Source of the DNA: a virus
Virus record (IMG/VR): IMGVR_UViG_3300037325_000137
Coordinates: 14,376 to 78,375 of that record
Length of the DNA stretch: 64,000 bases
Reading direction: 5' to 3' (one strand)
A model generated the notes under the pieces. The model ran no database searches. It was not told the DNA's origin and saw nothing but the letters and a program-made list of their open reading frames with translations. Both the position numbers and the translations under genes were made by a program. This document shows positions 25,919 through 60,812 of this stretch, one piece after another. Position 1 is the stretch's first letter. Each line of letters starts with the position of its first letter.

Positions 25919-27325
25919 TTACTCTGGGTTTACGATACAAATAAGTTCTGGACAAGGAACTCCGATACAAACGTCTACAGATTTTGTGATTTTAATGTTT
26001 TCACAATCATCAGTAGGTACGGCAGCAAGACCTCCTGTAATAAAGGTTCTAATCTTACCTTTTTTAAGAGCAAGTTCTTTGTATGCTGTGAACACATAAG
26101 GTACTTGTCTAGTCTCTCCGTTAACTACAGTTTCGATAGTTCCCATTGGGATTATCATTGCATAAGGCATAGTTGCAGAAATACGATTCTTAGAGAAAGC
26201 TCCGTTACCTTCGGTTAACCTAACCTTGGTAAAGTAAAACGTGTGACCGTCTTTTTGGATTCCTCTGAAACCATACATAGCCATGTTGTCATTGTTGTTA
26301 TTAACATCGTGACCCATATCAATATTAAGAGTTCCACCAAGCAATGCTGCTATAGCTTCCATCTTTCTGTATTGGGTATTGTTAAAGCAATGAACTGTTA
26401 ACTCCATGTTAGGCATTCCTAAACTATCGTAATAGTCAGTTACCGCTTCTAAATCAGCCATTGTTTCAATGTAACCAACATGCTCTAAACCTTCACTTGT
26501 TGCTTTATCGAACAACCCTTTAGTTCCATATTTACCAGCAGCATAAGCGTCAGATCCAGTAGCAGACTCTTCTTCAATAAGAAGTGTTTTAGCTATTTTA
26601 GAATAAAGACGTTTATCAAGTTTTAATTGATTATCGTCATACCAAAAGATTTCTTCATCATCACCAAAACAATATTGGTATTGATTAATAGAACCACTTG
26701 CTCCGATAGCATCTTTGATCTTTTGGAATTTAAGATTTATAGATTTTACCTTTCTTCTTTCAAGTAACCCTTCTGGACCACAAGTTCCTTTATCCCAATC
26801 ACCACCATTTACATCAACTGTGATATTTGTAAGAGCAGTAGTCCATCCACCGTCTAAACGAGAAAGCGCTGTAAATGTATTGGCTGACTTATCAATGGCA
26901 GTAATAACACCTAACTCTCTTTTACCAGTGTTATCATAAACCGCTATCGTGTCGTTAAGTCTGAAAAAGAAATAATCTTCACCAGCTACATAACCTTGTA
27001 TAGCTGTAGGGTCAATTGTAAACACGTTTGCAGCACGTGCTACAGCACCGTCATCGTCAATTACAAAGTTAAAAGTTTCGTGTTCTACGAAAGTAATATA
27101 ATCGGTTGTGAACATTAAGTCCATTTGGAACAATTCAAAAAAGATAATTAGGTTATCTTTTAACATGCCTAAACAGTCTGTTCTAACTAAGTCAAGAGCT
27201 TCTTTTGGAAGACCTCCCCTTTCGTTTTGCAACGCTGCCATTTCAACAGGCGTGCGGTAATTTTTTTGATCCAATAATACGGGTGCGGTATTATTAAAAG
27301 GATTCGTTGGAGCATTAACTGCCAT
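25919..27325 (-). CDS. Major capsid protein
   Basis: 468 aa, follows acidic scaffold-like gene, followed by strong terminator; GTKGLF motif. Confidence 0.7.
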   Translation of the reverse strand: MAVNAPTNPFNNTAPVLLDQKNYRTPVEMAALQNERGGLPKEALDLVRTDCLGMLKDNLIIFFELFQMDLMFTTDYITFVEHETFNFVIDDDGAVARAANVFTIDPTAIQGYVAGEDYFFFRLNDTIAVYDNTGKRELGVITAIDKSANTFTALSRLDGGWTTALTNITVDVNGGDWDKGTCGPEGLLERRKVKSINLKFQKIKDAIGASGSINQYQYCFGDDEEIFWYDDNQLKLDKRLYSKIAKTLLIEEESATGSDAYAAGKYGTKGLFDKATSEGLEHVGYIETMADLEAVTDYYDSLGMPNMELTVHCFNNTQYRKMEAIAALLGGTLNIDMGHDVNNNNDNMAMYGFRGIQKDGHTFYFTKVRLTEGNGAFSKNRISATMPYAMIIPMGTIETVVNGETRQVPYVFTAYKELALKKGKIRTFITGGLAAVPTDDCENIKITKSVDVCIGVPCPELICIVNPE

Positions 27326-29127: not shown

Positions 29128-29349
29128 TTAGCACACATTAAAACTATCTAATATATATTTCGCTAATTTTAAGGCTTGCTCTTTATTTAAGTAAGTATGT
29201 GCATCTCCTTGAAAATCTCCCTCTATCTCAATCTCAAAGTCATTATCCTTGTCTACTGGGTTTATCACAAAATTATCAAGTGATAAACGTGTGCTAACAC
29301 TTGGTATAGTGCATTGCTCGGTTTCGGTTTTTTTACTATCTGTATTCAT
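29128..29349 (-). CDS. Cassette-encoded hypothetical protein
   Basis: Starts in att loop; TAA stop is the TTA of the core site. Confidence 0.6.
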   Translation of the reverse strand: MNTDSKKTETEQCTIPSVSTRLSLDNFVINPVDKDNDFEIEIEGDFQGDAHTYLNKEQALKLAKYILDSFNVC

Positions 29350-29417
29350 AATTCAAAGTTTTTGTGTAATTAATTAAGTTCGTGCTATAAGGTCGCAACG
29401 ACACCATACCATATCCG
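29128..29417. mobile_element. Solitary integron-like gene cassette
   Basis: Starts G|TTAGCACACATT; own R'' AAACGTGTGCTAAC; arms tggtatagtgcattgc / gcaacgacaccatacca; ends CCG|TTA. Confidence 0.8.
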
Positions 29418-29420
29418 TTA

Positions 29421-29636
29421 TTAAGTAAACTCCCACTCGTCGGGAATATGTACTTCAAAACATTCTTCGTTAGTGTCATTGATTTTGGTTTTTAAAAACG
29501 AATCTCCAATGTTTTCATCATCAGTATATGTTGCTATCCCGAGATATTTACCATCACGCCAAAGGTGGTAATCTTTACCTTATATCAAAAGTTCTTGCCT
29601 TAATCCTAATACACCTAGTTTTAATATACGTTTCAT
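29421..29636 (-). pseudogene. Small gene with one in-frame TAA at 29580-29582
   Basis: MKRILKLGVLGLRQELLI*GKDYHLWRDGKYLGIATYTDDENIGDSFLK...EWEFT*. Confidence 0.5.
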
Positions 29637-38755: not shown

Positions 38756-39511
38756 TTATTTGTTTTTATAATTTCCGTTTAACATATCAAAACCTTTTAA
38801 GTCTTGAACCTCGTAGTGTTTCCATTCTTCTTCTAAAACAATACTTATTTTTCTAGTTACAGTCCATCCAGATTTTTCTAGCATCTGTTCTTGAATGCGT
38901 AGTTGTAGAGCCAACTTAGATAGTTTACTAGTGGCAAGGGTTATTTCTTGTGGCAAGTTTTTGAAATTTGTAGTACCATGATCATCAAAATTTACATTTA
39001 CCTTATAATCAACCAAAATACATTCTTTTCTATCTTGATCTGTGACAATTAAATTATCAACTAAGGCACAAACATCATTTTCTACATCAGAAACTAAAGA
39101 TTCTGGAAAGGATTGACCTCTTAAGCCTAGATTTTTTGCGTAAATAAAAAAGTCTTTTACTATGGCTTTAATAATTGGGTGCTTTATATTAAAACACCTT
39201 TCTCCATTCTTTTTTAAGTTACGTCTATAAAGTAGTTCGTATTCAATTGCTTCATGAATAGCAGTTCCAAAACCTCTAGCAATGTTTCCGCTTAATTCCC
39301 AAGCTTTTTCAATAGTTTCTTTTGGTATTTGCCAATTTACCTCACACCTATCTGCAACCTCTTCTGAATCAAATTCTTCTATATATCGTTTTGAGAACGT
39401 AGTAGCACCGCTTAGTATTCTATCTTTATAAACGTATCTATGATCTATTGGATCAAAGTTTATAATCAAGTCCTCGTTAAAGGACTTGATGTTGTTTTTC
39501 TCTAGTAGCAT
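38756..39511 (-). CDS. PD-(D/E)XK exonuclease-like protein
   Basis: GTAIHEAIE, PE, VD, LVDYK motifs. Confidence 0.7.
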   Translation of the reverse strand: MLLEKNNIKSFNEDLIINFDPIDHRYVYKDRILSGATTFSKRYIEEFDSEEVADRCEVNWQIPKETIEKAWELSGNIARGFGTAIHEAIEYELLYRRNLKKNGERCFNIKHPIIKAIVKDFFIYAKNLGLRGQSFPESLVSDVENDVCALVDNLIVTDQDRKECILVDYKVNVNFDDHGTTNFKNLPQEITLATSKLSKLALQLRIQEQMLEKSGWTVTRKISIVLEEEWKHYEVQDLKGFDMLNGNYKNK

Positions 39512-39514
39512 ATC

Positions 39515-39943
39515 TTAATCTTTAGAAGCACTTACTTTAAGATAACCTTTACCAAATTTTATTATTGGCATAGGTAATATTTCACCGTCTGTTGTTACAT
39601 TACTATTTGTGTTTCCAGAAATAAAACTGTCGTGCATTCGTTTATATTTTGTTTCCATGTCTTTCACGTAATCTTTAGCACTCATAACTTCTGGAACACC
39701 GCTATAATCGTAAGTTTTTCTACCAGAAACCAAAGTAACCTTGAAACCTCTGTAGCCGTTAGGGTGTTCGTTTGCTTGATTAGCTATATCTTCTGCGTTT
39801 TCTGTCTCAAACTGTTTAACAGCTCCTAGAATAAGGTCTGCTGTAGTTTTAAGTTCACGTAAATCGATAAGGGCATCAAGTTCAGATAACATACCGTCAT
39901 CTACTTTTTGTACTGTGTCTTGTAATTGTTGTAATAAATTCAT
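39515..39943 (-). CDS. Hypothetical phage protein
   Basis: 142-aa ORF in recombination block. Confidence 0.55.
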   Translation of the reverse strand: MNLLQQLQDTVQKVDDGMLSELDALIDLRELKTTADLILGAVKQFETENAEDIANQANEHPNGYRGFKVTLVSGRKTYDYSGVPEVMSAKDYVKDMETKYKRMHDSFISGNTNSNVTTDGEILPMPIIKFGKGYLKVSASKD

Positions 39944-40222
39944 AGTTTTTAGTTTTAAATTTTAGTCTCTGCAATTTTCTTTTAAATCTGCCTTGGCACA
40001 TGAAGTAGAGCAAAAATCTTCTGCCGTTGGTGTACCACAATAGCTACAAGTATTATCGTGTTCAACTTCATCAAAATATTCTTGATCGTCTAAGTCTCTT
40101 GTTTCTGGCATAATTAATCTTTTCTAAATGTTGGTCTTTCTTGCTCTTGAACCCAATCCAAATAAACTTCGTTATCATTTATTTGTGAGCTTTCAAACTC
40201 TCTTTGGTCATGGTGTAACTCT

Positions 40223-40435
40223 TTACTTCCTTTCATGATCGTATAGTGATTTAAGCCTTAAATAAAAAGGCGTGAATGTTTTTTTACCGCTATTAGCTAA
40301 AAGTATTTCTAAATGAGAATCAACAAACTTTTTCTTGTTAACTACAACTGTTGCTTCGTTTAGATTAAATGGTTCTGAATCTAATTCATGAGTCTTAAAA
40401 AACTCTACCATTTCTTTGAAGTCAGTATTACTCAA
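40223..40435 (-). CDS. Hypothetical protein
   Basis: 70-aa ORF. Confidence 0.5.
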   Translation of the reverse strand: MSNTDFKEMVEFFKTHELDSEPFNLNEATVVVNKKKFVDSHLEILLANSGKKTFTPFYLRLKSLYDHERK

Positions 40436-41081
40436 CTCCTTTTTTTAAATTATCAATTCTAATAGTTATTTGATTTCTTTGATCTTCTGTTAGATCATAA
40501 TAAGATATAGAAGACTCTAATGCTTTAATATCTTTAGATACTATAACATTGTTTTGAAACGTAGTATCTGGAAGCTTTGGCTTATTAGCTACTAGTGTTG
40601 GTGCTTGTTTTGGTAGCTGGTGGTCGTTTGAGTGTGTAGCCTCTGTGTCGTCTATTTTCCCTACAGGCGTTAAGAAAGCATATAGCAAACAGTTCTTTAA
40701 AGCGTAAGTGGTTGCTTTTCCAGCTCCTTTATCTTGTGGGTCTACTCCATGTCCATATCCTGCTAAAACTTGACTCTCGCCAGAAGTGTGAAGTAATAAA
40801 TACTTAGTTGTCACCTTAGTAAATACTGATTGCTTTTGCTTAATACTAGTTACACCGTTCCAAACTTCTTCTTGATCCCATCTATCAATTTGAGTAGACT
40901 CTTCAATCCCGATTGGTAGAATACAAAGACCGTTTCTAACTAAAGCATCGTTAAAAATCTCTTTTACATCCGAGTCCTTAGTGCCATTATATGCTGAATT
41001 ACCCTTTCCTACTTTACTGTTTTTCTCCATGCCCTTAACTTCTGACATTACCGCTACAATAGCTTCTGCTAAATTTTTCAT
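40428..41081 (-). CDS. erf: ERF-family single-strand annealing protein
   Basis: LLHTSGES...DPQDKGAGKATTYALKNCL...DD motif. Confidence 0.75.
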   Translation of the reverse strand: MKNLAEAIVAVMSEVKGMEKNSKVGKGNSAYNGTKDSDVKEIFNDALVRNGLCILPIGIEESTQIDRWDQEEVWNGVTSIKQKQSVFTKVTTKYLLLHTSGESQVLAGYGHGVDPQDKGAGKATTYALKNCLLYAFLTPVGKIDDTEATHSNDHQLPKQAPTLVANKPKLPDTTFQNNVIVSKDIKALESSISYYDLTEDQRNQITIRIDNLKKGVE

Positions 41082-42337: not shown

Positions 42338-42566
42338 AAAAATCGATTATTGAATTGTGAGCCTTTAATATTTTAATTAGATTCATATAAGTGCTATTAT
42401 CTTGTGTTTCTTTTATAAATATTTCTAAGAACTCTTTGTGAGTAATAGGCTTGTAATTTATAAAGAAATCATATTTAAGACTAGGATTAGATGTGATTAT
42501 ATTTCCTATTTCTTGAATATTGTAGGATTTAAACCTGTGACCTAAATTATTTCTAATTTTATACAT
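42318..42566 (-). CDS. Hypothetical protein coupled to integrase stop
   Basis: 82-aa ORF. Confidence 0.45.
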   Translation of the reverse strand: MYKIRNNLGHRFKSYNIQEIGNIITSNPSLKYDFFINYKPITHKEFLEIFIKETQDNSTYMNLIKILKAHNSIIDFYEKQDK

Positions 42567-43375
42567 TAAATAGGCATTTGAATTTTGCTTAAATGATTTT
42601 TTGAAACGTGGGTGTAAATTTCAGTTGTCTTAGAGCTTTGATGCCCCGCAATAGATTGGATTATCCTTAAATCAGTACCTCCCTCTAGTAAGTGAGTGAA
42701 GCAACTATGCCTAAGCTGATGCATATAAGCATCTTCTTTAATATACTTTTTAATTATTTTATTACAAGATGTGGCTGAATACTGTAAAGAAGACTGACCG
42801 TTAAAAAGATATTCTTTTGGTCTATGTTTTTTAAAGTAATCCCTAAGTGTTTTTAGTAGCCCATTAGACAAAGGAACAACTCTATCTTTCTTGCCTTTAG
42901 CTTGAATTATATGAATCAATCCTCTATTTGAATCAATGTTTTCTATTTTCAGATTTATTATTTCTGAAACCCTTAATCCGCAACTATATGCTGCGGATAA
43001 AATAGCTTTATGTTTCATGTTTTTTATAGATAATATTTTTTCTGTAAGAATTTTTTTATCTATTATTTGGGGTAGCTTTTTTTCTTTTCTAGGTCTTGAA
43101 AAATCTACTTTATCGTATTTTTTATTCAGAACTTTTTTGTAAAGAAACTTGATTGAGCTTATTATTTGATTTTGTTGCGATATAGAGCTGAAATTATAAT
43201 TTTCTAAATAAGATTTAAAATCATTACTATCTAGCTTAGAAGGAGACTTTTTATTGACTCTTAAAAATTCTTCAACGTAATAACTATATATTTTTACAGT
43301 ATTTTTACTGTAGTTAAAATAGTTCAATTTTGAAATGAAATTCTGCAGAAAAGTGTGTTTAGTTTTGCTTAACAT
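42566..43375 (-). CDS. Tyrosine recombinase (integron-integrase-related, no IntI-specific insertion)
   Basis: SAM-like N-domain (YSKNTVKIY, SQQNQIISSIKFLY); catalytic set GLR, KGKKDR, HQLRHS, GH, IYTHV all intact. Confidence 0.92.
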   Translation of the reverse strand: MLSKTKHTFLQNFISKLNYFNYSKNTVKIYSYYVEEFLRVNKKSPSKLDSNDFKSYLENYNFSSISQQNQIISSIKFLYKKVLNKKYDKVDFSRPRKEKKLPQIIDKKILTEKILSIKNMKHKAILSAAYSCGLRVSEIINLKIENIDSNRGLIHIIQAKGKKDRVVPLSNGLLKTLRDYFKKHRPKEYLFNGQSSLQYSATSCNKIIKKYIKEDAYMHQLRHSCFTHLLEGGTDLRIIQSIAGHQSSKTTEIYTHVSKNHLSKIQMPI

Positions 43376-43430
43376 ATTGATTTATATTGATTTGTTAGTT
43401 ATGGTTGATATATAGTAGTTAGCAAACATT
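43374..43430 (+). other. attI-like primary recombination site
   Basis: ATATTGATTT x2 (43374-43393) then G|TTAGCAAAC core at 43418 with no partner hairpin arm; array begins here. Confidence 0.65.
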
Positions 43431-43709
43431 ATTCAAATAATCACAGTACATTTTTGCCTGTTCTTCGCTATGTATAAAGAACACTACCTCTATACCTTTG
43501 CCATCGAGTACCGCTTTACCTTGTTTTCTGCCAACTCTAAAAGGTGGTGTATATTTATTAGCATCATAACGTTTGCTAACACCAGATAAAATTAATGCCT
43601 CGTCTACTGCATTTTTAATAAGTCCTATACATTCTTCTTTTGCTAATGAAGTTCCTACCCAACTTTTTAAATTTTGTGCATGTTTATCAATTATTTGCTC
43701 TTTAGTCAT
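43419..43709 (-). CDS. Cassette 1 hypothetical protein
   Basis: Starts in att1 loop; ALILSGVSKR is encoded by the att arm; stop is the core TTA. Confidence 0.65.
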   Translation of the reverse strand: MTKEQIIDKHAQNLKSWVGTSLAKEECIGLIKNAVDEALILSGVSKRYDANKYTPPFRVGRKQGKAVLDGKGIEVVFFIHSEEQAKMYCDYLNNVC

Positions 43710-43772
43710 TGTCTATTTATTTAATTATTGTTATTATTTATCGGCACTAATCTTATCTGCGGTACGTTAGCT
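43571..43772. repeat. att site 1
   Basis: gctaacaccagataaaattaatgcc ... ggcactaatcttatctgcggtacgttagc. Confidence 0.85.
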
Positions 43773-43780
43773 ACAAGTGC

Positions 43781-44500
43781 TTAATTTAGTTGATTAAACA
43801 AAGTTGGTGCTTCAATCTCTTTTTCTTTTTTTTTCCCCACCCTTTCACTCGCAATATCAAAATAATCCTGTTGCATTTCAATTCCAATAAATCTTCTATT
43901 TAGGTTTTTACAAGCAACTCCTGTTGTACCACTACCCATAAAAGGGTCTAATACTACTTCGTTTTCATTAGTTGAGTTGTTTATATAAAATTCCATTAAT
44001 TCTATTGGTTTTTCTGTTGGGTGTACTTTACTCCCAATTATATTATTAAAAGAATGTACTGTTTTGCTTCCGCCAATGTCATTTATGTATTTAGATTTTC
44101 CTTTTCTAAAAAATATAGTGTACTCGCAATTCTTCATATAAAATTGAGAAGGTGTGCAGTTGTTTTTTTGCCAAACTAAAAAGTTTTGTATTTTAAATCC
44201 TGCTTTTTCTATCTCGTTTGCCATTTTTAGTAAATTAGAAGAGTTTACCATCACATAGTTTTGAGTTCCATCTTTTAGTATTCTAAACATTTCTGGCAAC
44301 CATTCACTAAATTTAGGAACACTCCTCATTAGTTCTCTATTTCCTTTCAATATACCTTTTGGTCTAATACTGTTTTTGCCATTACTATCACCTCCTGTTA
44401 TTATTTTATAAGGAGGGTCAGTAACTACACAATCAATACTTTCGCTTGGTAATGTTTTTAATATTTCAAGGGCATCACCCATTTTTAAATCTATATTCAT
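43781..44500 (-). CDS. Cassette 2: DNA amino-methyltransferase (N6/N4, beta class)
   Basis: VTDPPY, HPTEKP, LDPFMGSGTTG motifs. Confidence 0.93.
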   Translation of the reverse strand: MNIDLKMGDALEILKTLPSESIDCVVTDPPYKIITGGDSNGKNSIRPKGILKGNRELMRSVPKFSEWLPEMFRILKDGTQNYVMVNSSNLLKMANEIEKAGFKIQNFLVWQKNNCTPSQFYMKNCEYTIFFRKGKSKYINDIGGSKTVHSFNNIIGSKVHPTEKPIELMEFYINNSTNENEVVLDPFMGSGTTGVACKNLNRRFIGIEMQQDYFDIASERVGKKKEKEIEAPTLFNQLN

Positions 44501-44597
44501 AATGTTTTAATTTTATCAAATTAATTTGCCAACGCTCAAAAAAGAAAATAAAAAGGTTCAGTTCTATTAATTAAGTTTAGGTGTTTAAAGTCGCACC

Positions 44598-44657
44598 AGT
44601 AGGTAACACTGTATAAAAGCCATTGAAAATAACGGCTCTTATACCCATCCGTTAGCA
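44598..44657. repeat. att site 2 (short)
   Basis: taacactgtataaaagcc ... ggctcttatacccatccgtta. Confidence 0.8.
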
Positions 44658-44661
44658 ACAA

Positions 44662-44904
44662 TTAATTGCCCTGTAAGTAATTGTCTGCAATCCATTCTTT
44701 ACTTACAAACCTATTTCCTCCACCTTTTTCAAGGCTTGTTAAAAGGTCAATTAACAGTTCCCTTCGGTTGCTAACATCGTTTAACCGTAATTGCTCGGTT
44801 ACGTACTTATCTATGAAGTCTGTTAACCATTCTACCTTTTCATTTCCAGTCATATCGTTTCTTGATACAAGTTGGTTTAATTTTTCAATCTCTGTTATTT
44901 TCAT
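44662..44904 (-). CDS. Cassette 3 hypothetical protein
   Basis: Starts in att3 loop; QLRLNDVSNR is encoded by the arm. Confidence 0.6.
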   Translation of the reverse strand: MKITEIEKLNQLVSRNDMTGNEKVEWLTDFIDKYVTEQLRLNDVSNRRELLIDLLTSLEKGGGNRFVSKEWIADNYLQGN

Positions 44905-44968
44905 CTGTTCTTATTTATTAAGTTTTGTTATTAATTCACGCAACTACGGTTACACGTAGCCGTTGTAG
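44766..44968. repeat. att site 3
   Basis: aacatcgtttaaccgtaattgc ... gcaactacggttacacgtagccgtt. Confidence 0.85.
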
Positions 44969-44973
44969 TGCAT

Positions 44974-45270
44974 TTACATTACGTTTCGCTCGATACTTAT
45001 GTTTTTATCAGTAACAACTACTATAAAGCTTGTTCTTTGCACCGCCAAAGGGGCTTTTTTTTCAAGATGTTTAAGAACGTGGTTTGCACCATTATTTACT
45101 ATATCACGTCTAGTTTTTAATTGATGAAGTTTGTTTTGTACTTGCTCAATTTCGGCTTCCAATTCTTCTTTCTCTAAAGCTATATTCACTAATATATCAG
45201 CCCCTTTTATTTCCTCGCCTTGAATAAGGTCAGTAATTCCAGAGAAACTTAGGTCGTCAATTTTTTTCAT
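44974..45270 (-). CDS. Cassette 4 hypothetical coiled-coil protein
   Basis: ORF 44974-45285; likely start MKKIDD at 45270. Confidence 0.55.
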   Translation of the reverse strand: MKKIDDLSFSGITDLIQGEEIKGADILVNIALEKEELEAEIEQVQNKLHQLKTRRDIVNNGANHVLKHLEKKAPLAVQRTSFIVVVTDKNISIERNVM

Positions 45271-45281
45271 AGCAAAAAAAC

Positions 45282-45416
45282 GCACTACAACACTGTATAA
45301 AAATAATAGCCTGTTGTAGTGTCTTTTTAGTGGCTATTACTCACTTATTAATTAATTGTTTAACTTAAACTTTTCGCTTATTTATTCGGCTACTATTCTT
45401 ATACTAAACGTTGTAA
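45282..45416. repeat. att site 4
   Basis: aacactgtataaaaataatagcc ... ggctactattcttatactaaacgtt. Confidence 0.88.
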
Positions 45417-45420
45417 GTAA

Positions 45421-45654
45421 TTAAGGTTCGAGATACCTCAAAGGCACTTCTTTACTCCAAAAACCACCCTTATCAATGTTCTGTACTAACGCTCTTGGTT
45501 CGTCATAATATTCTTGTGTTTTACCATCTTGAAATATTGGATAATACACCAACATCCATCTGTCTTTTTTACCATCCATTTTATAAACGCTTTCGTTACG
45601 CTTATGATTTTTCCAAATCGGGTGGTTTAAGGCTTTTTCTAAATCTATGTTCAT
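45421..45654 (-). CDS. Cassette 5 hypothetical protein
   Basis: 77-aa ORF filling the cassette. Confidence 0.6.
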   Translation of the reverse strand: MNIDLEKALNHPIWKNHKRNESVYKMDGKKDRWMLVYYPIFQDGKTQEYYDEPRALVQNIDKGGFWSKEVPLRYLEP

Positions 45655-45671
45655 TTCTTATTTGCTTTAAC

Positions 45672-45877
45672 TACTTACAACACTATATATAATTAATATA
45701 AAAGGGGCGCAGTCCAACTATCCGTTATTCCTTTCGGGTCAAGCCTAAGCCCCCACGGAAGGAACGTTTTACAGGCTTTGGACACCTTCAATTTCACTAT
45801 CTAAAACGCTGTTGGTAAACCCACTAATTTCTGCATTTTTAACCCCTTTTAAACTAATCATATATTTTACGTTATAA
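45672..45877. repeat. att site 5
   Basis: aacactatatataattaatataaaagggg ... ccccttttaaactaatcatatattttacgtt. Confidence 0.8.
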
Positions 45878-46144
45878 ACAATACTCTTTTTGTGTATATG
45901 GTTCAGAGTAGAAGCATTTATCAGTACTATCAAATTTAATATTTCTATACCAAGTTATTTCTGTATTTGTTGTTTTTCCTGTTCTACTACTGCAATCACA
46001 ATCTTTATGACATTGGCAACTACCATTATCAATAGAAGTGTATTTTTTAGTAAATATTCTATAAGAAACACCATCTATAATTGTGATTTGCAATGCTTCC
46101 ATTTCTATATTCAATCTTTTAGGGTTTAACAATCTTTCTCGCAT
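45872..46144 (-). CDS. Cassette 6 Cys-rich protein
   Basis: CQCHKDCDC motif; likely start MRERLL (46144) or MEALQ; stop is the core TTA. Confidence 0.55.
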   Translation of the reverse strand: MRERLLNPKRLNIEMEALQITIIDGVSYRIFTKKYTSIDNGSCQCHKDCDCSSRTGKTTNTEITWYRNIKFDSTDKCFYSEPYTQKEYCL

Positions 46145-46155
46145 AACTTCCGTAC

Positions 46156-46253
46156 AGTTTATAACACAGGCTATAAATAAAAGCCCTGTCAAGGTTATTG
46201 TTGTGAATCGAACTTTGTGTTTAGGGCTTCAATTCATAGCCGAGCCGTTATCT
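46156..46253. repeat. att site 6
   Basis: aacacaggctataaataaaagccct ... agggcttcaattcatagccgagccgtt. Confidence 0.85.
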
Positions 46254-46424
46254 TTAATAATCAAACTCTTCCTCATTTAATACATCAAAGTGAATATCCT
46301 CATTTAATACATCAAAGTGAATATCCTCTATTTTGTTTTTAATAAACAGTCTTTTAATTCGATAGATAACTAAAGATAACAATGTATAAAATGCATAGCT
46401 TAATTTCGTTCTTAAATTTTTCAT
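46254..46424 (-). CDS. Cassette 7, 56-aa protein with duplicated EDIHFDVLN (not in ORF track)
   Basis: MKNLRTKLSYAFYTLLSLVIYRIKRLFIKNKIEDIHFDVLNEDIHFDVLNEEEFDY; 27-bp tandem repeat 46270-46323. Confidence 0.5.
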   Translation of the reverse strand: MKNLRTKLSYAFYTLLSLVIYRIKRLFIKNKIEDIHFDVLNEDIHFDVLNEEEFDY

Positions 46425-46511
46425 CTGTTCTGTTTTTAAAGTTTATAATTTATAATTAATTCAAAGTCTGTGGTGTTTAGGTCGCTACGCACCTTATACT
46501 AAACGTTGTGT
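46371..46511. repeat. att site 7
   Basis: aacaatgtataaaatgcatagc ... gctacgcaccttatactaaacgtt. Confidence 0.85.
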
Positions 46512-46519
46512 GTAATACT

Positions 46520-46762
46520 TTATTTAGGTTCGTTTACAGCATTACTATCTACTTTTTTCCAAGGACGTTCTATCATATTACAACCTGCTTGATACCAAGT
46601 TTGTATTTGTAATTTATTACATTTTGTACACTTTCTAAAATGAGCATATCTATTATCTTCTTTTCTACCACCGTCCCAATACTTATAAGGATGATATAAA
46701 TTAAAAAAACAAAGTAATTTTTGCAATGCTTTAGGTTTGTCTATTCTTAAAACTTTTTCCAT
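46520..46762 (-). CDS. Cassette 8 small Zn-binding-like protein
   Basis: LLCFFNLYH ... RKCTKC motif. Confidence 0.6.
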   Translation of the reverse strand: MEKVLRIDKPKALQKLLCFFNLYHPYKYWDGGRKEDNRYAHFRKCTKCNKLQIQTWYQAGCNMIERPWKKVDSNAVNEPK

Positions 46763-46793
46763 TTTAATAAAGTTTGTGGCTTAAATTCCGTAT

Positions 46794-46892
46794 TACACAC
46801 AACAATGTATATAGTTTATAAGCCAATTAATATTTGTTTTTAATTTGTAAATTTCTGATATGGCTTACAAAACCATATACTCAACGTTAGGC
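46794..46892. repeat. att site 8
   Basis: aacaatgtatatagtttataagcca ... tggcttacaaaaccatatactcaacgtt. Confidence 0.88.
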
Positions 46893-46896
46893 ACAA

Positions 46897-47202
46897 TTAA
46901 GGTTTGCGTCCTAATAACTTACTTAGCTTCATCCCCAACCACTCAGGGCAAGGTATAGCTACTACCCATCTTAAATAAGGCAATATACCTACAAAACCAA
47001 TCCCCCAATGCTCTGTTGCAACTATTGAAACTTCAAAGCTAAATGCGTCTAAAGTCCAAAATGTAAATATTAGCCATCTAAAACTAAAACTACTTGTATT
47101 GTGTTCGTCTGCTTTCCTTATTTCTATTAAGGGTATTAATGGAAATACATTTTTGTTGTACCATTTTTCTGTTCTCATTCTTCCTGATGCTGTTTGTGAC
47201 AT
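46897..47202 (-). CDS. Cassette 9 hypothetical Trp/Phe-rich protein
   Basis: 101-aa ORF filling the cassette. Confidence 0.6.
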   Translation of the reverse strand: MSQTASGRMRTEKWYNKNVFPLIPLIEIRKADEHNTSSFSFRWLIFTFWTLDAFSFEVSIVATEHWGIGFVGILPYLRWVVAIPCPEWLGMKLSKLLGRKP

Positions 47203-47209
47203 AATTAAA

Positions 47210-47306
47210 AGTGCCTAACAATAGCTAAAGTTAATAGCCTCAATAGGTCTTGTTATAATTTGATGGTTAGTATTAAAGGCTACTAACCTTAGCCTAGACG
47301 TTATGA
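47210..47306. repeat. att site 9
   Basis: aacaatagctaaagttaatagcct ... aggctactaaccttagcctagacgtt. Confidence 0.88.
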
Positions 47307-47459
47307 TGCAATTAAAATTTTAAGCATCTCGTTTAACTTCCCTACACATTGAGCATAGTATCGTTCATTATCTTCCTGTTTCATTATTTTAGCTACTTCA
47401 TAAAGGTCTGTATAAATACCAATTTTCTTTATTACAATACTTTTTAGTTCATCCATCAT
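47301..47459 (-). CDS. Cassette 10 small helical protein
   Basis: ORF 47301-47483; likely start MMDELK; stop is the core TTA. Confidence 0.5.
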   Translation of the reverse strand: MMDELKSIVIKKIGIYTDLYEVAKIMKQEDNERYYAQCVGKLNEMLKILIAS

Positions 47460-47471
47460 TAAAATTTTAAA

Positions 47472-47566
47472 AGCACATAACAATGTATAAAATTAATGCG
47501 CTATGATAATTAGTGTTAAATTTTTAAGTATGTGGTTAGCGCACTAATCTTATACTAACTGCAATG
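47472..47566. repeat. att site 10 (GTT core missing)
   Basis: aacaatgtataaaattaatgcgcta ... tagcgcactaatcttatactaact, then gcaatg. Confidence 0.75.
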
Positions 47567-47569
47567 TTG

Positions 47570-47818
47570 CTATTTAAAGTTTTGCCTAAACGGCTTGTTA
47601 CATTTTGGACAAGAAGTGCCTAAATACAAGCCTTTGATTATCGGTTCGCAACACTGTTCGCTCTGCCTTACAACAACGGGTATAGAAAATAATTCAGAAG
47701 GCATCAGTCTTTCTATCACGTCTATTGCACTCCATATTTCTCTTGATTCATAACTGTGATGTATTGAGTCAAAGTGTTCTGCTCTTTTTTCTAGTGTTTT
47801 AATAACGTCTGCTTTCAT
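47570..47818 (-). CDS. Cassette 11 protein with C-terminal CPKC zinc ribbon
   Basis: Starts in att11 loop; ELFSIPVVVRQ is encoded by the arm. Confidence 0.6.
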   Translation of the reverse strand: MKADVIKTLEKRAEHFDSIHHSYESREIWSAIDVIERLMPSELFSIPVVVRQSEQCCEPIIKGLYLGTSCPKCNKPFRQNFK

Positions 47819-47878
47819 CTTTTAAGTTTTTGCGTTTTAAATCCTCCTAAATTAAATTCCATACCCAAACCGTTAGCA
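47665..47878. repeat. att site 11
   Basis: aacaacgggtatagaaaataatt ... aattaaattccatacccaaaccgtt. Confidence 0.75.
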
Positions 47879-47998
47879 TTAATACTCAGTACCTAAGTAT
47901 TCTACTAAATAAGGGTAGTCCCAACTTTTACTGCTACTGTAATACATTTTCCAGTAACCTCTATTATTCTTTATTATTTCAGTCCATTTACTTGTCAT
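47879..47998 (-). CDS. Cassette 12, 39-aa aromatic-rich peptide (not in ORF track)
   Basis: MTSKWTEIIKNNRGYWKMYYSSSKSWDYPYLVEYLGTEY fills the cassette. Confidence 0.5.
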   Translation of the reverse strand: MTSKWTEIIKNNRGYWKMYYSSSKSWDYPYLVEYLGTEY

Positions 47999-48022
47999 AG
48001 TTTCTATTTTTTAAGTCCGTAC

Positions 48023-48078
48023 TAATGCTAACAATATGTAAAAAACATTAAAACGATGTGTTATACTAGACGTTAGCA
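48023..48078. repeat. att site 12 (minimal, ~56 bp)
   Basis: gctaacaatatgtaaaaaacat ... atgtgttatactagacgttagc. Confidence 0.7.
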
Positions 48079-48357
48079 AACATTTATGTTGTTGCTATCT
48101 ATAAAGCTTTTAGGATTTCCGCAACCTATTAAAAACTCTGCTCCGTTACCTAATTTAAAGTAACATCTATCCCAATCATTGCTTCTATCGAAAGTAAAAT
48201 TTTCACCTTTTTTTATGGTATAATAACACCCTTTCCAACTCAAATTCTCCCTTCTATTGTTAGGTATATTACCCACATCAGTGGCTTCTATGGGTGTGCT
48301 ACCATACCTACCTTTATCAATAAAAACTCTAATATCTTCTGTTGCTTGTAAATTCAT
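48073..48357 (-). CDS. Cassette 13 hypothetical protein
   Basis: ORF 48073-48378; likely start MNLQAT; ends NVC* on the core site. Confidence 0.6.
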   Translation of the reverse strand: MNLQATEDIRVFIDKGRYGSTPIEATDVGNIPNNRRENLSWKGCYYTIKKGENFTFDRSNDWDRCYFKLGNGAEFLIGCGNPKSFIDSNNINVC

Positions 48358-48366
48358 AATTAAACG

Positions 48367-48463
48367 ATTTGCTAACACAACCTATACACCATAAAGCAAT
48401 ATAGTATTGTGCTAATATTAAACATTGTGCTACGCTTTACGGTGCATAGCTTTACCGTTGGCG
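48367..48463. repeat. att site 13
   Basis: aacacaacctatacaccataaagc ... gctttacggtgcatagctttaccgtt. Confidence 0.85.
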
Positions 48464-48469
48464 GTAATA

Positions 48470-48820
48470 CTACATTAGTACCTTATCCATCATTTCATTT
48501 ATGTTCTCCGCAATTTTTTCATCATAACCTCTATTGTAAAATTCATCGCCAGTAGTCAAATGATAAGTACCTATGTTATCCAAATACTGTTTCATTTTTT
48601 CATAAGGTTCAGTATTTTCATACCCTATCAAATTAAGATAAGACCAATAACATTTAATAGAAAATTGCTCTGTGTTTGTTCCTCTATCTGTTCTTTTTTC
48701 GTTTTGTCTTTGTATCCATAAGGCTTGTTCTTTCTTGTAGTCTGTGTACTTTAAAGCCGTACTACTGCCAACAAAAAATATAGCAAATGCTTTTCGTAAT
48801 CTTTGGGTAAATTGTTTCAT
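48470..48820 (-). CDS. Cassette 14 hypothetical protein
   Basis: Starts in att14 loop; AFAIFFVGSS is encoded by the arm. Confidence 0.6.
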   Translation of the reverse strand: MKQFTQRLRKAFAIFFVGSSTALKYTDYKKEQALWIQRQNEKRTDRGTNTEQFSIKCYWSYLNLIGYENTEPYEKMKQYLDNIGTYHLTTGDEFYNRGYDEKIAENINEMMDKVLM

Positions 48821-48886
48821 ACTTCTAATTTTTAGTTCATTTAAGTTAGAGTGTTGTTGGCACTTGCCATCTTCAAACCGTTAGCC
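48763..48886. repeat. att site 14
   Basis: aacaaaaaatatagcaaatgc ... gcacttgccatcttcaaaccgtt. Confidence 0.8.
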
Positions 48887-49147
48887 ACCATTTGAAAAAC
48901 CGCACTCATCCAAGAAGCTTTGTCCAACAGGAGAACCTAACCATTGAATTAAGTTTACGCAAATATCTTCTTCTTTTTCGGACAACCACTCTTTAGGTTG
49001 CGTTTGTCTATCATTAGACCACCCATTCACAATAGCACTTAGGCTTTTTCTGGCAGAACCATCATGATTGAACATTTTAATAAATTTATCGTGAAATTCT
49101 TTTTCTTTAGGATTGTCATTAAATCTGTATTCTTTATTGCCTTTCAT
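48881..49147 (-). CDS. Cassette 15 hypothetical protein
   Basis: IQWLGSPVGQSFL motif; stop is the core TTA. Confidence 0.65.
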   Translation of the reverse strand: MKGNKEYRFNDNPKEKEFHDKFIKMFNHDGSARKSLSAIVNGWSNDRQTQPKEWLSEKEEDICVNLIQWLGSPVGQSFLDECGFSNGG

Positions 49148-49155
49148 AGTAAAAC

Positions 49156-49281
49156 GGTGGCTAACAATGTATATAGCAAATAGCCTTATTAGCCATTTTA
49201 GAAACTACTTGCTTGTTTATAATTTATTTACTTTTTACTTAATTCTGTGATAGGCTACTTGCCATATACTAAACATTGTAG
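49156..49281. repeat. att site 15 (core ATT instead of GTT)
   Basis: aacaatgtatatagcaaatagcct ... aggctacttgccatatactaaacatt. Confidence 0.85.
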
Positions 49282-49302
49282 TGCATTAAAACGTTCGATT
49301 CG

Positions 49303-49693
49303 CCACAACAACACGCTATATAAATAATGCTTGGTTTCGTGCTGTAATCAAAGTTTAGCGCTTTTAATGCCATAATTAAATATTTTTAAAAACCCATTCA
49401 CCATTTAGTTTCCAAGTTTCTTTATCATAGTAAACTTCTACTACTATATTTTGCATTTTATTATGGCAACGTAAATTTCCACAAGAGAAGTCTACTGCTT
49501 CAATACCTAATTCATCATTTACATCAATAAAATCTTGGTTTTTACTCGTTGCTATCAACCTTACTGGGTATTCTGCTTTCTTTTTTAATACTTCTTTTAA
49601 GTTCATTTTTAAAAATATTTAATTATTAGTTCTGTGTTTAATTCAAAGTTTCGTTCATTTAATGTCGCACTATTCATATAGCAACAGTTACCC
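49303..49693. repeat. att site 16 (gene inside loop)
   Basis: aacacgctatataaataatgc ... gcactattcatatagcaacagtt. Confidence 0.75.
49376..49606 (-). CDS. Hypothetical protein inside att16 loop
   Basis: 76 aa, bracketed by a perfect 21-bp inverted repeat. Confidence 0.6.
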   Translation of the reverse strand: MNLKEVLKKKAEYPVRLIATSKNQDFIDVNDELGIEAVDFSCGNLRCHNKMQNIVVEVYYDKETWKLNGEWVFKNI

Positions 49694-49753
49694 TTAATAC
49701 TAGGTTCGTGCTTTCTCGGTTGTTATTGTTTGTTCAGTCTTTATCCTTATTTA

Positions 49754-50224
49754 TTATATTAAATTGTTAGCGTGATGTGACTTAGTGTAAATACCACCAG
49801 CTCTTATGTATTCTATCGCTGTATTCATAGAACTAGTTGTGTCTGTGTCTTCGTTAACGATCATATACCCATCTTCATTAGAATGTTCAATAGAGAATTT
49901 AAAGTTTACCGATTTTTCCATGTCAATAGCTAAATTTTTTAGCTTTGTCTCAAATGTTTCTCTAATAGTTTCTAAAGCATTTATACCTCTTTCTATTCTT
50001 CTCATGTGTATGTTATGTCTTTCTTCCCAAAGTTCTTTTAGGATTTGTTGATTTTGATAATTAGCTAGATTACTTGATTCCCACTTACTGAAACCTTTAT
50101 CGTCGATGATCTTATAACTGGATCTTATGGAGACAATATTATTTCTTGACAGAGCCAGTTTCTTTTGAGTTTCTGTAAGTGCATTAAAAGCCTTTGACCT
50201 CTGTATTTCTTTTTTTGCTATCAT
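49754..50224 (-). CDS. Hypothetical early protein
   Basis: 156-aa ORF. Confidence 0.5.
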   Translation of the reverse strand: MIAKKEIQRSKAFNALTETQKKLALSRNNIVSIRSSYKIIDDKGFSKWESSNLANYQNQQILKELWEERHNIHMRRIERGINALETIRETFETKLKNLAIDMEKSVNFKFSIEHSNEDGYMIVNEDTDTTSSMNTAIEYIRAGGIYTKSHHANNLI

Positions 50225-59854: not shown

Positions 59855-60061
59855 ATGAAAGTTGAATTAGATAGAAAAGGATTAGAAACATTAGTAAAAG
59901 GTAGCCAACCTTATTACAATGATTTTGAAAACGAGTTAGTAAAAAAAGCTGGACACTCTTATAATGATCAATATGGTAGGACTAGTTGGCACAACTTAAG
60001 TGACCTTACAGAAAAAGAACTCTATAATTTATATGAAATATGTAGGAATAGTTGGACTTAA
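59855..60061 (+). CDS. Hypothetical protein, probably cassette-derived
   Basis: Followed immediately by GCCTAAC core and an att arm. Confidence 0.55.
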   Translation: MKVELDRKGLETLVKGSQPYYNDFENELVKKAGHSYNDQYGRTSWHNLSDLTEKELYNLYEICRNSWT

Positions 60062-60148
60062 ATGTTGCCTAACGTCAAGGCTAAAGTTAGTAGCCGTTAA
60101 TTACTAACCATCAAACTATAACTAGACCTATTTGGGCATTTTAAAATT

Positions 60149-60313
60149 ATGAATAACTTAAGGTTTTGGAGAAAATTAAAAGGATGTACTTGGTATAAGC
60201 ACCGATTTACTAAAGATGCAAACGAGTTGACTTTTGCAGAAGGAAAAACTTGGTGGGCAAGGTATGGCAAAATTAATAGGTACTCTGATCTAGTAGGAAC
60301 AGAAGTTTATTAA
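60149..60313 (+). CDS. 54-aa cassette protein (not in ORF track)
   Basis: MNNLRFWRKLKGCTWYKHRFTKDANELTFAEGKTWWARYGKINRYSDLVGTEVY. Confidence 0.55.
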   Translation: MNNLRFWRKLKGCTWYKHRFTKDANELTFAEGKTWWARYGKINRYSDLVGTEVY

Positions 60314-60374
60314 ATGGCTTACAACGTACCGCAGATAAGATTAGTTGCGTGAATAATAACTTAAATTAATAGAA

Positions 60375-60527
60375 ATGAAAAACAGAATAATTGAAATATG
60401 TGAGTTAGGAAAACCACAAAGTATAATTCATAGAGAAAATGAACCGATTACAGAACTAATCAAAACCACTGACTTAGTAGAAGAACTTAACAAGCAATTA
60501 ATTTTATCTGGTGTTGTAGCCAGTTAA
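60375..60527 (+). CDS. 50-aa protein encoded in att loop and arm (not in ORF track)
   Basis: MKNRIIEICELGKPQ...NKQLILSGVVAS. Confidence 0.5.
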   Translation: MKNRIIEICELGKPQSIIHRENEPITELIKTTDLVEELNKQLILSGVVAS

Positions 60528-60540
60528 TTAAATATATAAA

Positions 60541-60762
60541 ATGAAAGTAGAAAGAAAATATACAGCGATGCAGATATCGACAAAAACCGTTGACAATACT
60601 GTAAAAGTAAGCTTTGAATATGGTGAAATTACAGGACCATATTATAGCCAAGAACACCCGACAGAGGTTTTTGACACGGAGGACGAGGCAATAGCCTACG
60701 CATATAAGTACTGCAAATATTGTAGATGGATGATTGTTCCAATAGTTACTTTTGATAACTAG
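60541..60762 (+). CDS. Cassette hypothetical protein
   Basis: 73 aa between matched cassette ends. Confidence 0.6.
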   Translation: MKVERKYTAMQISTKTVDNTVKVSFEYGEITGPYYSQEHPTEVFDTEDEAIAYAYKYCKYCRWMIVPIVTFDN

Positions 60763-60812
60763 ACCTTAATTGGCTACAACATCGGATAAACTCAATAAAA
60801 AATATAAATAAA

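Follow-up and report, generated by a model that had tools for sequence, protein, structure and literature searches.

To our knowledge, integrons are defined by the integrase IntI with its extra domain. They are regarded as almost missing from Bacteroidota, and the only forms known from phages are captured classical integrons and orphan clusters of attC sites. With IntegronFinder 2.0, almost no complete integrons were found in Bacteroidetes (PMC9024848). Classical integrons have been described in temperate phages, and attC clusters without an integrase (CALINs) in virulent ones (Qi et al. 2023, PMC9892861). One of the latter, Polaribacter phage P12002L, was reported to carry two sites in divergent orientation with methyltransferase cassettes and no integrase; in an assay with IntI1 of Escherichia coli, its site attC1 failed and attC2 recombined (Qi et al. 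2023, PMC9892861). Here, we describe an array of small gene cassettes beside a tyrosine recombinase gene in a stretch of 64,000 nucleotides (hereafter the window), i. e. bases 14376-78375 of the IMG/VR virus record IMGVR_UViG_3300037325_000137, which comprises 78,375 bp, carries direct terminal repeats and is estimated to be 100% complete. This locus is probably a phage-borne, integron-like gene-capture platform. It stands apart in that a complete phage carries the whole platform, that its enzyme lacks the defining domain, and that the module recurs in dozens of virus contigs. The initial annotation of this DNA, which was made from the sequence alone, knew of no characterised example of this form in a phage. 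This has to be qualified: the integrons and attC clusters described by Qi et al. (2023, PMC9892861) are a partial precedent, and the only one that we found, whereas full-text searches turned up no report in which an insert-less recombinase is linked to arrays of this kind.

The recombinase gene is located on the minus strand (42566-43375) and encodes an XerA/IntI-like protein of 269 amino acids with a SAM-like core-binding domain (PF13495) and a catalytic domain (PF00589, 3.6e-37). All catalytic residues are present (R135, K160, H219, R222, H245 and Y254) and invariant across 31 homologs, and as judged from its sequence the gene is intact, just as first annotated. In the integron integrase VchIntIA, an insertion binds the extrahelical bases of attC and is regarded as essential. 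The phage enzyme has no such insertion, and the earlier proposal that it is not an IntI is thus borne out: its residues 180-212 are opposite residues 180-260 of IntI4/VchIntIA (2a3v), so that about 48 residues including the IntI-specific region are missing, and the aligned span covers 260 residues as compared to 311 in IntI1. The match to the integron integrase model TIGR02249 is split into two stretches and scores 157.7 bits, below the cut-off of 265. In an AlphaFold (AF2) model with a pLDDT of 87, a plain loop is found at positions 185-200, where the IntI insertion would sit. The closest folds to this model are XerA and IntI4, and these are also the closest in sequence. The scores with NF040815 (XerA_Arch; 180.5 bits, cut-off 220), the XerD model (158.7, cut-off 330) and the XerC model (147.7, cut-off 335) are all below the respective cut-offs, and the sites next to the enzyme are hairpin arrays rather than a single palindromic dif. 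Lysogeny integrases of temperate phages have an arm-binding N-terminal domain and use an attP that carries arm sites; a domain scan did not detect such a domain here, and the protein consists of the core-binding and catalytic domains alone. Among metagenomic proteins there are hundreds of relatives (60-77% identical), all of 263-270 amino acids and labelled only as XerD or integrase.

The array ends 43 nt upstream of the ATG of the recombinase gene at an attI-like terminal junction (43396-43420, minus strand), in which a last ...GCTAAC is followed by TACTATATATCAAC; the complete junction reads TTTGCTAAC↓TACTATATATCAAC (arrows mark junctions and crossover points throughout). We compared 68 homologous loci from IMG/VR with recombinases that are 55-67% identical. 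The motif AAC↓TATTATATAT was present in 59 of them at a median distance of 51 nt from the ATG, and its TATAT is invariant. The bases that precede the AAC vary among the loci, and the junction therefore looks like an attI joined to changing first cassettes. The exact 15-mer AACGTTTAGTATAAG had 63 matches in IMG/VR, which was estimated to be near chance, and few of these loci had arrays.

The sites are linked to the recombinase. They were mapped with a purpose-written scanner (AAC[GA], 4-6 nt, a stem, 2-4 nt, [TG]GTT) with controls for strand, position and locus. In the 6 kb upstream of the recombinase gene in the 68 loci, the density on the same strand was 1.08 sites per kb as compared to 0.033 per kb downstream on this strand and 0.03-0.065 per kb on the opposite strand, an enrichment of about 30-fold. 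The 55 loci of phages that are related by their Erf protein have neither the recombinase nor an array and served as a control; here, 0.016-0.04 sites per kb were found. Upstream sequence of 3 kb or more was available for 38 loci; each of these had at least one site, and 32 of them had at least three.

In the window, 15 hairpin sites (43578-49278, within an array region of 43418-49280) lie on the minus strand, upstream of the recombinase gene and on its strand. On the gene strand, each site consists of ...TAAC, about 5 unpaired nucleotides, a long imperfect stem-loop, about 3 unpaired nucleotides and GTTA...; on the plus strand this reads YAAC ... (C)GTT. The initial annotation had described 16 tandem units with these boundaries, and both their number and their coordinates were confirmed: there are 15 well-formed cassettes of 200-885 bp and a degenerate 16th, distal unit that reaches to about 49725. 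The layout that it had recognised as that of an integron, with recombinase, attI-like site and cassettes with attC-like sites, is also present. Eight exact copies of the motif ATAYANTGTTR are present in the 64 kb, each of them on the minus strand between 44604 and 49172. The sites C, F, N and P, which seem to be half sites, turned out to be full sites with the second arm and the GTT inside the next open reading frame (ORF); these ORFs begin in the hairpin loop and read through the GTT in frame. Across 39 arrays with 269 unique sites and a median site length of 113 nt, the grammar is (A)TAAC-G ... T-GTTA(T). Thus, of the earlier description as non-canonical att sites only a weaker form can be kept, since the AAC/GTT core is close to the canonical one.

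The cassettes carry a footprint that extends across the gene: the sequence behind each GTT and the sequence in front of the next AAC are reverse complements. In 233 cassettes from 39 non-identical arrays, this complementarity beyond the core had a mean of 5.0 contiguous nucleotides and reached at least 4 nt in 73% of the cassettes. Within one hairpin, the same measure had a mean of 1.7 nt (at least 4 nt in 8%), and in a control in which one cassette was skipped the mean was 1.8 nt (at least 4 nt in 11%). In the window, the pairing of the ends extends up to 14 nt. Complementary ends across the gene are a property of integron cassettes, in which the crossover takes place in the conserved triplet and the circular form restores the full R box.

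Sites of this type are also present in other phages and in bacteria. P12002L and the Tenacibaculum phage Gundel_1 have the same site type as the window and some homologous cassettes. The methyltransferase cassette of P12002L and its neighbour are homologous to the window, and their ends differ yet remain complementary, i. e. they covary. One of the sites mapped here is P12002L_attC1, whereas attC2 is the terminal junction read in reverse, and the P12002L array is longer than published. Distant homologs of the recombinase (40-52% identical) are encoded by Aequorivita, Aquimarina, other Flavobacteriaceae and a Desulfitobacterium. In these bacteria and on a further 3.5-Mb chromosome, arrays of the same or similar sites (L186, 11234-15229; L200, 12267-19733; L216, 11797-20700; L163, L180 and L190) lie downstream of insert-less recombinases, with the ORFs opposite to the folding strand. 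The recombinases linked to them pass the cut-off of NF040815 ("site-specific tyrosine recombinase/integron integrase") whereas the phage enzymes fail it. These bacterial arrays look like integrons that IntI-based tools would miss. A 42%-identical homolog on the Chryseobacterium plasmid NZ_CP041688.1 (16047-16844, hit H31) bears the annotation "site-specific tyrosine recombinase/integron integrase".

The stems reveal which strand is favoured. On the gene-sense strand of 243 unique hairpins, the mismatches comprise 383 G.T as compared to 47 A.C pairs, and the G is in the 5' arm for 340 of the G.T pairs. The spacers are unequal with about 5 nt on one side versus about 3 nt on the other, and regular bulges of extrahelical bases were not seen (47 and 21 bulged nucleotides across the 243 hairpins). 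The bacterial arrays show the same bias (76 versus 9) on the strand that has this spacer geometry, and in 37 of 39 segments this strand is antisense to the ORFs. In the phage arrays, the wobble-bearing strand is the ORF strand in 179 segments versus 39. Thus, the wobble bias tracks the site and not the transcript, which argues for a folded DNA strand as in integrons, with the phage cassettes inverted. By this pattern, the fold would form in single-stranded DNA rather than in mRNA. In Vibrio chromosomal integrons, the repeats are uniform. Similarly, in the arrays L064, L047 and L048 one near-identical 43-nt hairpin (GTCYGATGATAAACAATCGTTTTAATGTTGTTTATCATTT) is present between most cassettes; the hairpins of the window are diverse.

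A comparison of arrays indicates that the cassettes move as units. The initial annotation had expected that mobility would show as gain or loss at G↓TT junctions, and related arrays did indeed differ by whole cassettes at these junctions. In the arrays L064, L047, L048 and L021, cassettes that are 93-100% identical occupy different positions. Behind one and the same cassette there is either a hairpin of type 1, a hairpin of type 2 or the attI-like site, with the homology ending right after ...TAAC. A breakpoint after the AAC places the crossover in the AAC box, probably at AA↓C on the gene strand, which equals G↓TT on the plus strand; the conserved terminal junction agrees with this position, which had been suggested before. 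It also follows that the hairpin upstream of a gene belongs to the cassette of that gene, and that the ORFs starting in a loop lie within one cassette. The canonical orientation, in which a gene is followed by its attC and the crossover is at T↓GTT, was ruled out by the breaks at AAC and by the array end xxxxAAC↓TAnnATATAT. Furthermore, contigs of four other salt-lake samples cover single cassettes or hairpins of the window array in other contexts and end at site boundaries. Such contigs cover exactly 43578-43776 in cassette 16, 44962-45324 in cassette 13 (contigs of four samples), 45869-46241 in cassette 11 and 46501-46789 in cassette 9, and they run into heterogeneous sequence at the AAC boxes of the sites D (48450, four samples) and H (47304). 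The recombinase gene is not covered by the contigs of these four samples.

Based on these observations, we propose that an Xer-type tyrosine recombinase would recognise attC-like sites that form when the gene-sense strand folds as single-stranded DNA; this strand would be the equivalent of the integron "bottom" strand. The folded site would consist of an R box, in which AAC pairs with GTT together with a cassette-specific extension, an unpaired spacer of about 5 and 3 nt, and an L stem with G.T wobbles. The enzyme would catalyse strand exchange at AA↓C. Circular cassettes would enter at the attI-like site beside the recombinase gene and be re-excised between two sites. A cassette comprises a hairpin and then its ORF, and the ORFs on the folding strand point towards the recombinase gene, inverted as compared to classical integrons. 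We give an even chance to a more far-reaching version of this proposal, according to which a phage-specific, insert-less XerA-like clade runs an autonomous integron with its own pool of cassettes of inverted polarity, and the spacer asymmetry and the G.T wobbles encode the choice of the strand in place of the extrahelical bases that the I2 helix of IntI reads.

Several points weigh against such a platform. The IntI-specific insertion (the I2 helix region) is absent from the recombinase according to alignment, profile and model alike. P12002L and Gundel_1 carry the same site type without any tyrosine recombinase; in the absence of the enzyme, such sites can thus be retained or be served in trans. 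The distal unit and the sites B, C and G show partial degeneration. For this very phage, neither a recombination product nor a circle nor an empty site was observed, and a close backbone relative for a direct comparison of the array was not found with the protein 49754-50224, the Erf protein or the structural protein 25919-27325. Joints within contigs were not counted as evidence, with sides of just 18-32 nt that are probably shared hairpin arms. Finally, some combinations of modules break at the GTT box and not at AAC, and a single crossover point does not explain these. ORF 47570-47818 consists of two modules that are joined exactly at the GTT box: its N-terminal 49 amino acids match phrog_34143, and the N-terminal part is shared with P12002L_0041, where a stop follows the box, while the cysteine-rich C-terminal part is common to Gundel1_62, which has a different N-terminal part (regions compared: L001, 6011-6238, and L002, 6376-6528). 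This arrangement suggests that exchange may occur at the GTT box as well, or that the conserved arms recombine.

The combinations that break at the GTT box while others break at AAC are also what would be expected if the recombinase swapped modules on duplex DNA, each hairpin being a pair of inverted Xer-type core sites that never folds as a single strand. The pdif modules of Acinetobacter plasmids provide a model for this. An Xer-like enzyme without the IntI domain for reading the folded attC fits this view, and so do the inverted boxes GTTxxxx and xxxxAAC that flank every gene. On the other hand, spacers of about 5 versus 3 nt do not make the half-sites equivalent duplex sites, the strand-specific G.T wobbles are expected from selection on intrastrand pairing and not on duplex identity, and one ORF orientation is kept throughout although inverted duplex sites would invert ORFs. 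We therefore regard duplex exchange as unlikely.

Somewhat less likely still, the array might be a passive CALIN that stems from or is served by integrons of the host, with a recombinase that acts in lysogenic integration or in dimer resolution at AAC↓TAnnATATAT. CALINs without an integrase are known from virulent phages including P12002L (PMC9892861), no recombinase accompanies the sites of P12002L and Gundel_1, and the chromosomes of Flavobacteriia hold arrays with the same site type. However, the array and the recombinase are adjacent and co-oriented, with the same joining motif, in dozens of otherwise unrelated virus contigs, whereas the Erf-related phages that lack the recombinase also lack arrays. 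Moreover, the ORF polarity is opposite to that of the bacterial arrays, the two kinds of arrays have no cassette in common apart from a distant similarity of methyltransferases, and the recombinase has no arm-binding domain.

In T4-type phages, promoter cassettes known as PeSLs provide an analog for elements acting at the level of the transcript. That the hairpins are terminators, processing sites or promoter cassettes between which genes are shuffled by homologous recombination is very improbable: the folding strand of the phage arrays is the mRNA-sense strand and the hairpins are intergenic and directly upstream of ORFs, but bacterial sites of the same type have their wobble-bearing strand antisense to the genes, RNA structure leaves the pairing of cassette start and end across the whole gene, the breakpoints exactly at AAC and the obligatory recombinase and attI-like site unexplained, a scan for sigma-70 promoters and terminators, which is unsuited to Bacteroidota promoters, gave no enrichment, and an Rfam scan of the window matched no family, with only weak irrelevant hits (SNORD45, PsrR1).

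The individual cassettes are all located on the minus strand. Next to the recombinase gene, cassette 16 (site P, 43419-43766) has its hairpin at 43578-43768 and an ORF of 96 amino acids (43419-43709) that runs from the loop through the GTT; GTTAGCAAA pairs with TTTGCTAAC. Cassette 15 (site O, 43767-44651; hairpin 44605-44653) encodes an N6/N4 DNA methyltransferase of 239 amino acids (43781-44500; PF01555, E 2e-41). It is followed by cassette 14 (site N, 44652-44962; hairpin 44773-44964), the ORF of which starts in the loop (44662-44904, 80 amino acids; GTTAGCAAC pairs with GTTGCTAAC), and by cassette 13 (site M, 44963-45410; hairpin 45289-45412) with an ORF of about 100 amino acids at 44974-45285 that belongs to phrog_37199 (GTTGTAGTGC with GCACTACAAC). 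Cassette 12 (site L, 45411-45871) has a hairpin of 195 nt (45679-45873) and an ORF of 77 amino acids (45421-45654; GTTGTAAGTA with TACTTACAAC), and in cassette 11 (site K, 45872-46247; hairpin 46163-46249) the ORF spans 45872-46192 or less (GTTATAAAC with GTTTATAAC). The small ORF of cassette 10 (site J, 46248-46505; hairpin 46378-46507) starts in the loop (46254-46424; GTTATCTTT with AAAGATAAC); this cassette also contains a tandem duplication of a 27-nt unit (GAGGATATTCACTTTGATGTATTAAAT) at 46265-46330 on the minus strand. The 14-nt pairing of GTTGTGTGTAATAC with GTATTACACACAAC is that of cassette 9 (site I, 46506-46886; hairpin 46801-46888; ORF 46520-46762, 80 amino acids).

Further away from the recombinase, cassette 8 (site H, 46887-47300; hairpin 47217-47302) has an ORF of 101 amino acids at 46897-47202 (GTTAGGCAC pairs with GTGCCTAAC), and in cassette 7 (site G, 47301-47566; hairpin 47479-47568; ORF 47301-47458) GTTATG pairs with CATAAC. 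The two-module ORF 47570-47818 (82 amino acids), which begins in the loop, is that of cassette 6 (site F, 47567-47872; hairpin 47672-47874). Cassette 5 (site E, 47873-48072; hairpin 48030-48074) encodes only 39 amino acids (47879-47998; GTTAGCATTA with TAATGCTAAC), and cassette 4 (site D, 48073-48457; hairpin 48374-48459; ORF 48073-48357, 94 amino acids) has the same paired ends as cassette 16, i. e. GTTAGCAAA and TTTGCTAAC. Cassette 3 (site C, 48458-48880; hairpin 48770-48882) has a weaker stem and an ORF of 116 amino acids (48470-48820) with its start in the loop, and 11 of 13 positions match between its ends. In cassette 2 (site B, 48881-49275; hairpin 49163-49278; ORF 48881-49147, 88 amino acids) the AAC has degenerated to AAT, and GTTAGCCACC pairs with GGTGGCTAAC. 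The distal degenerate unit 1 (49276-49725) holds the ORFs 49376-49606 and 49269-49373 and the weak site A (49679-49725) with a fold energy of just -2 kcal/mol, and its ends are not complementary.

Two further loci of the window contain cassettes. A solitary one on the minus strand (29129-29421) has a hairpin, an ORF that starts in the loop and pairing ends (GTTAGCACAC with GTGTGCTAAC); it is complete and lies 14 kb away from the array between convergent genes, and downstream of it GGCTGTATATAGGC is similar to the TATATA motif of the attI-like site. A second, mini-array of two to three cassettes without an adjoining recombinase (60060-60790, plus strand, and hence on the other strand than the main array; GTTGTAGCCA pairs with TGGCTACAAC) is located upstream of the helicase gene. 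It contains copies of hairpin H (truncated) and of the arms of hairpin P, the latter enclosing a different loop ORF of 50 amino acids, as well as a cassette whose ends are complementary over 10 nt. Its terminus AAC↓ATCGGATAAAC resembles the terminal AAC↓AACGGATAAAAC of the P12002L array, i. e. the "attC2" that was recombined by IntI1 (Qi et al. 2023, PMC9892861).

As for the cargo, the window array encodes one N6/N4 DNA methyltransferase and two proteins with PHROG families of unknown function, and the remaining proteins are without matches. Among the 80 largest cassette proteins of related arrays, there are six DNA methyltransferases, one Rv2179c-like exoribonuclease, one YopX protein and one DUF5662 protein, and about 70 are without a Pfam family. 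The cassettes are probably accessory genes for host takeover or against restriction.

The phage itself encodes virion structural proteins, an Erf-like annealing protein, an exonuclease and a helicase, and from about 59 kb down to the left end of the window every gene has minus-strand orientation. The full stretch was contained in a single sequencing run only, a salt-lake metagenome from which the phage probably stems. In IMG/VR, there was no relative of the protein 49754-50224, and the structural protein 25919-27325 was not found in five array-bearing virus records. Three array-bearing records are complete virus genomes of 71-76 kb without this structural protein, and the module is thus present in different phage lineages. 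The Erf-like single-strand annealing protein and the exonuclease are encoded 1.5-4 kb downstream of the recombinase gene (38756-41081, minus strand); that a recombination module is located so close to an array with a probable need for single-stranded DNA could be coincidental or not.

Should the enzyme be active, it would offer phages a site-specific route for the exchange of accessory genes, among them orphan methyltransferases and probably further genes for counter-defence, and this would explain the hyperplastic regions of flavobacterial phage genomes. An active enzyme would also make it testable whether the recombination of folded strands needs the I2 domain, and would provide a compact recombinase with a set of sites for cassette engineering. 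If the platform is indeed an autonomous integron, single-strand attC recombination does not require the domain that defines the integron integrases, and integron chemistry would be older or more widespread than the IntI family, and possibly ancestral to it.

How does this platform relate to the known systems? XerA (4a8e, 5hxy) is the best match of the enzyme in sequence and fold, and size and two-domain build agree. It differs from XerA, XerC, XerD and pdif in that the recombinase is linked to hairpin arrays and scores below the cut-offs of these Xer families. The phage CALINs have the same site type, a homologous methyltransferase cassette with its neighbour, and recurring methyltransferases; however, P12002L was reported with two sites and no integrase (Qi et al. 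2023, PMC9892861), whereas the window has an array of 15 sites with its own recombinase and attI-like site. By the presence of IntI as the criterion, the window array would be filed as a CALIN, yet it does have a dedicated recombinase and an attI-like site. The Flavobacteriia arrays (L186, L200 and L216) share the site type and a related insert-less recombinase (40-50% identical). As in the chromosomal integrons of the "inverted integrase" group, the Treponema denticola type, recombinase and cassette ORFs are co-oriented. The bacterial arrays differ in that their recombinase lies upstream of the ORFs.

Classical integrons are similar in many respects: a tyrosine recombinase gene lies beside the insertion site and, on the plus strand, is divergent from an array of mostly single-gene cassettes, the sites are imperfect hairpins of variable length with an AAC/GTT core, a crossover in the conserved triplet and a favoured folding strand, and a cassette begins with bases that can pair with its own R'' box. 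The catalytic set, the attC-like repeats, the complementary cassette ends, the attI-like site at the end of the array and, as judged by a comparison of arrays, the movement of cassettes as units are all found here. In contrast to classical integrons, the carrier is a phage, regular extrahelical bases were not found in the sites, which have an asymmetric spacer and conserved G.T wobbles, and the complementarity of the R box is extended and specific for each cassette. Moreover, the folding strand is also the ORF strand, and the direction of reading is towards attI and the recombinase gene instead of away from attI on the opposite strand; several ORFs begin in the hairpin loop. With this orientation, a Pc-type promoter at attI cannot drive the ORFs. 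With both the IntI insertion and the canonical ORF polarity missing, the platform is set apart from integrons proper.

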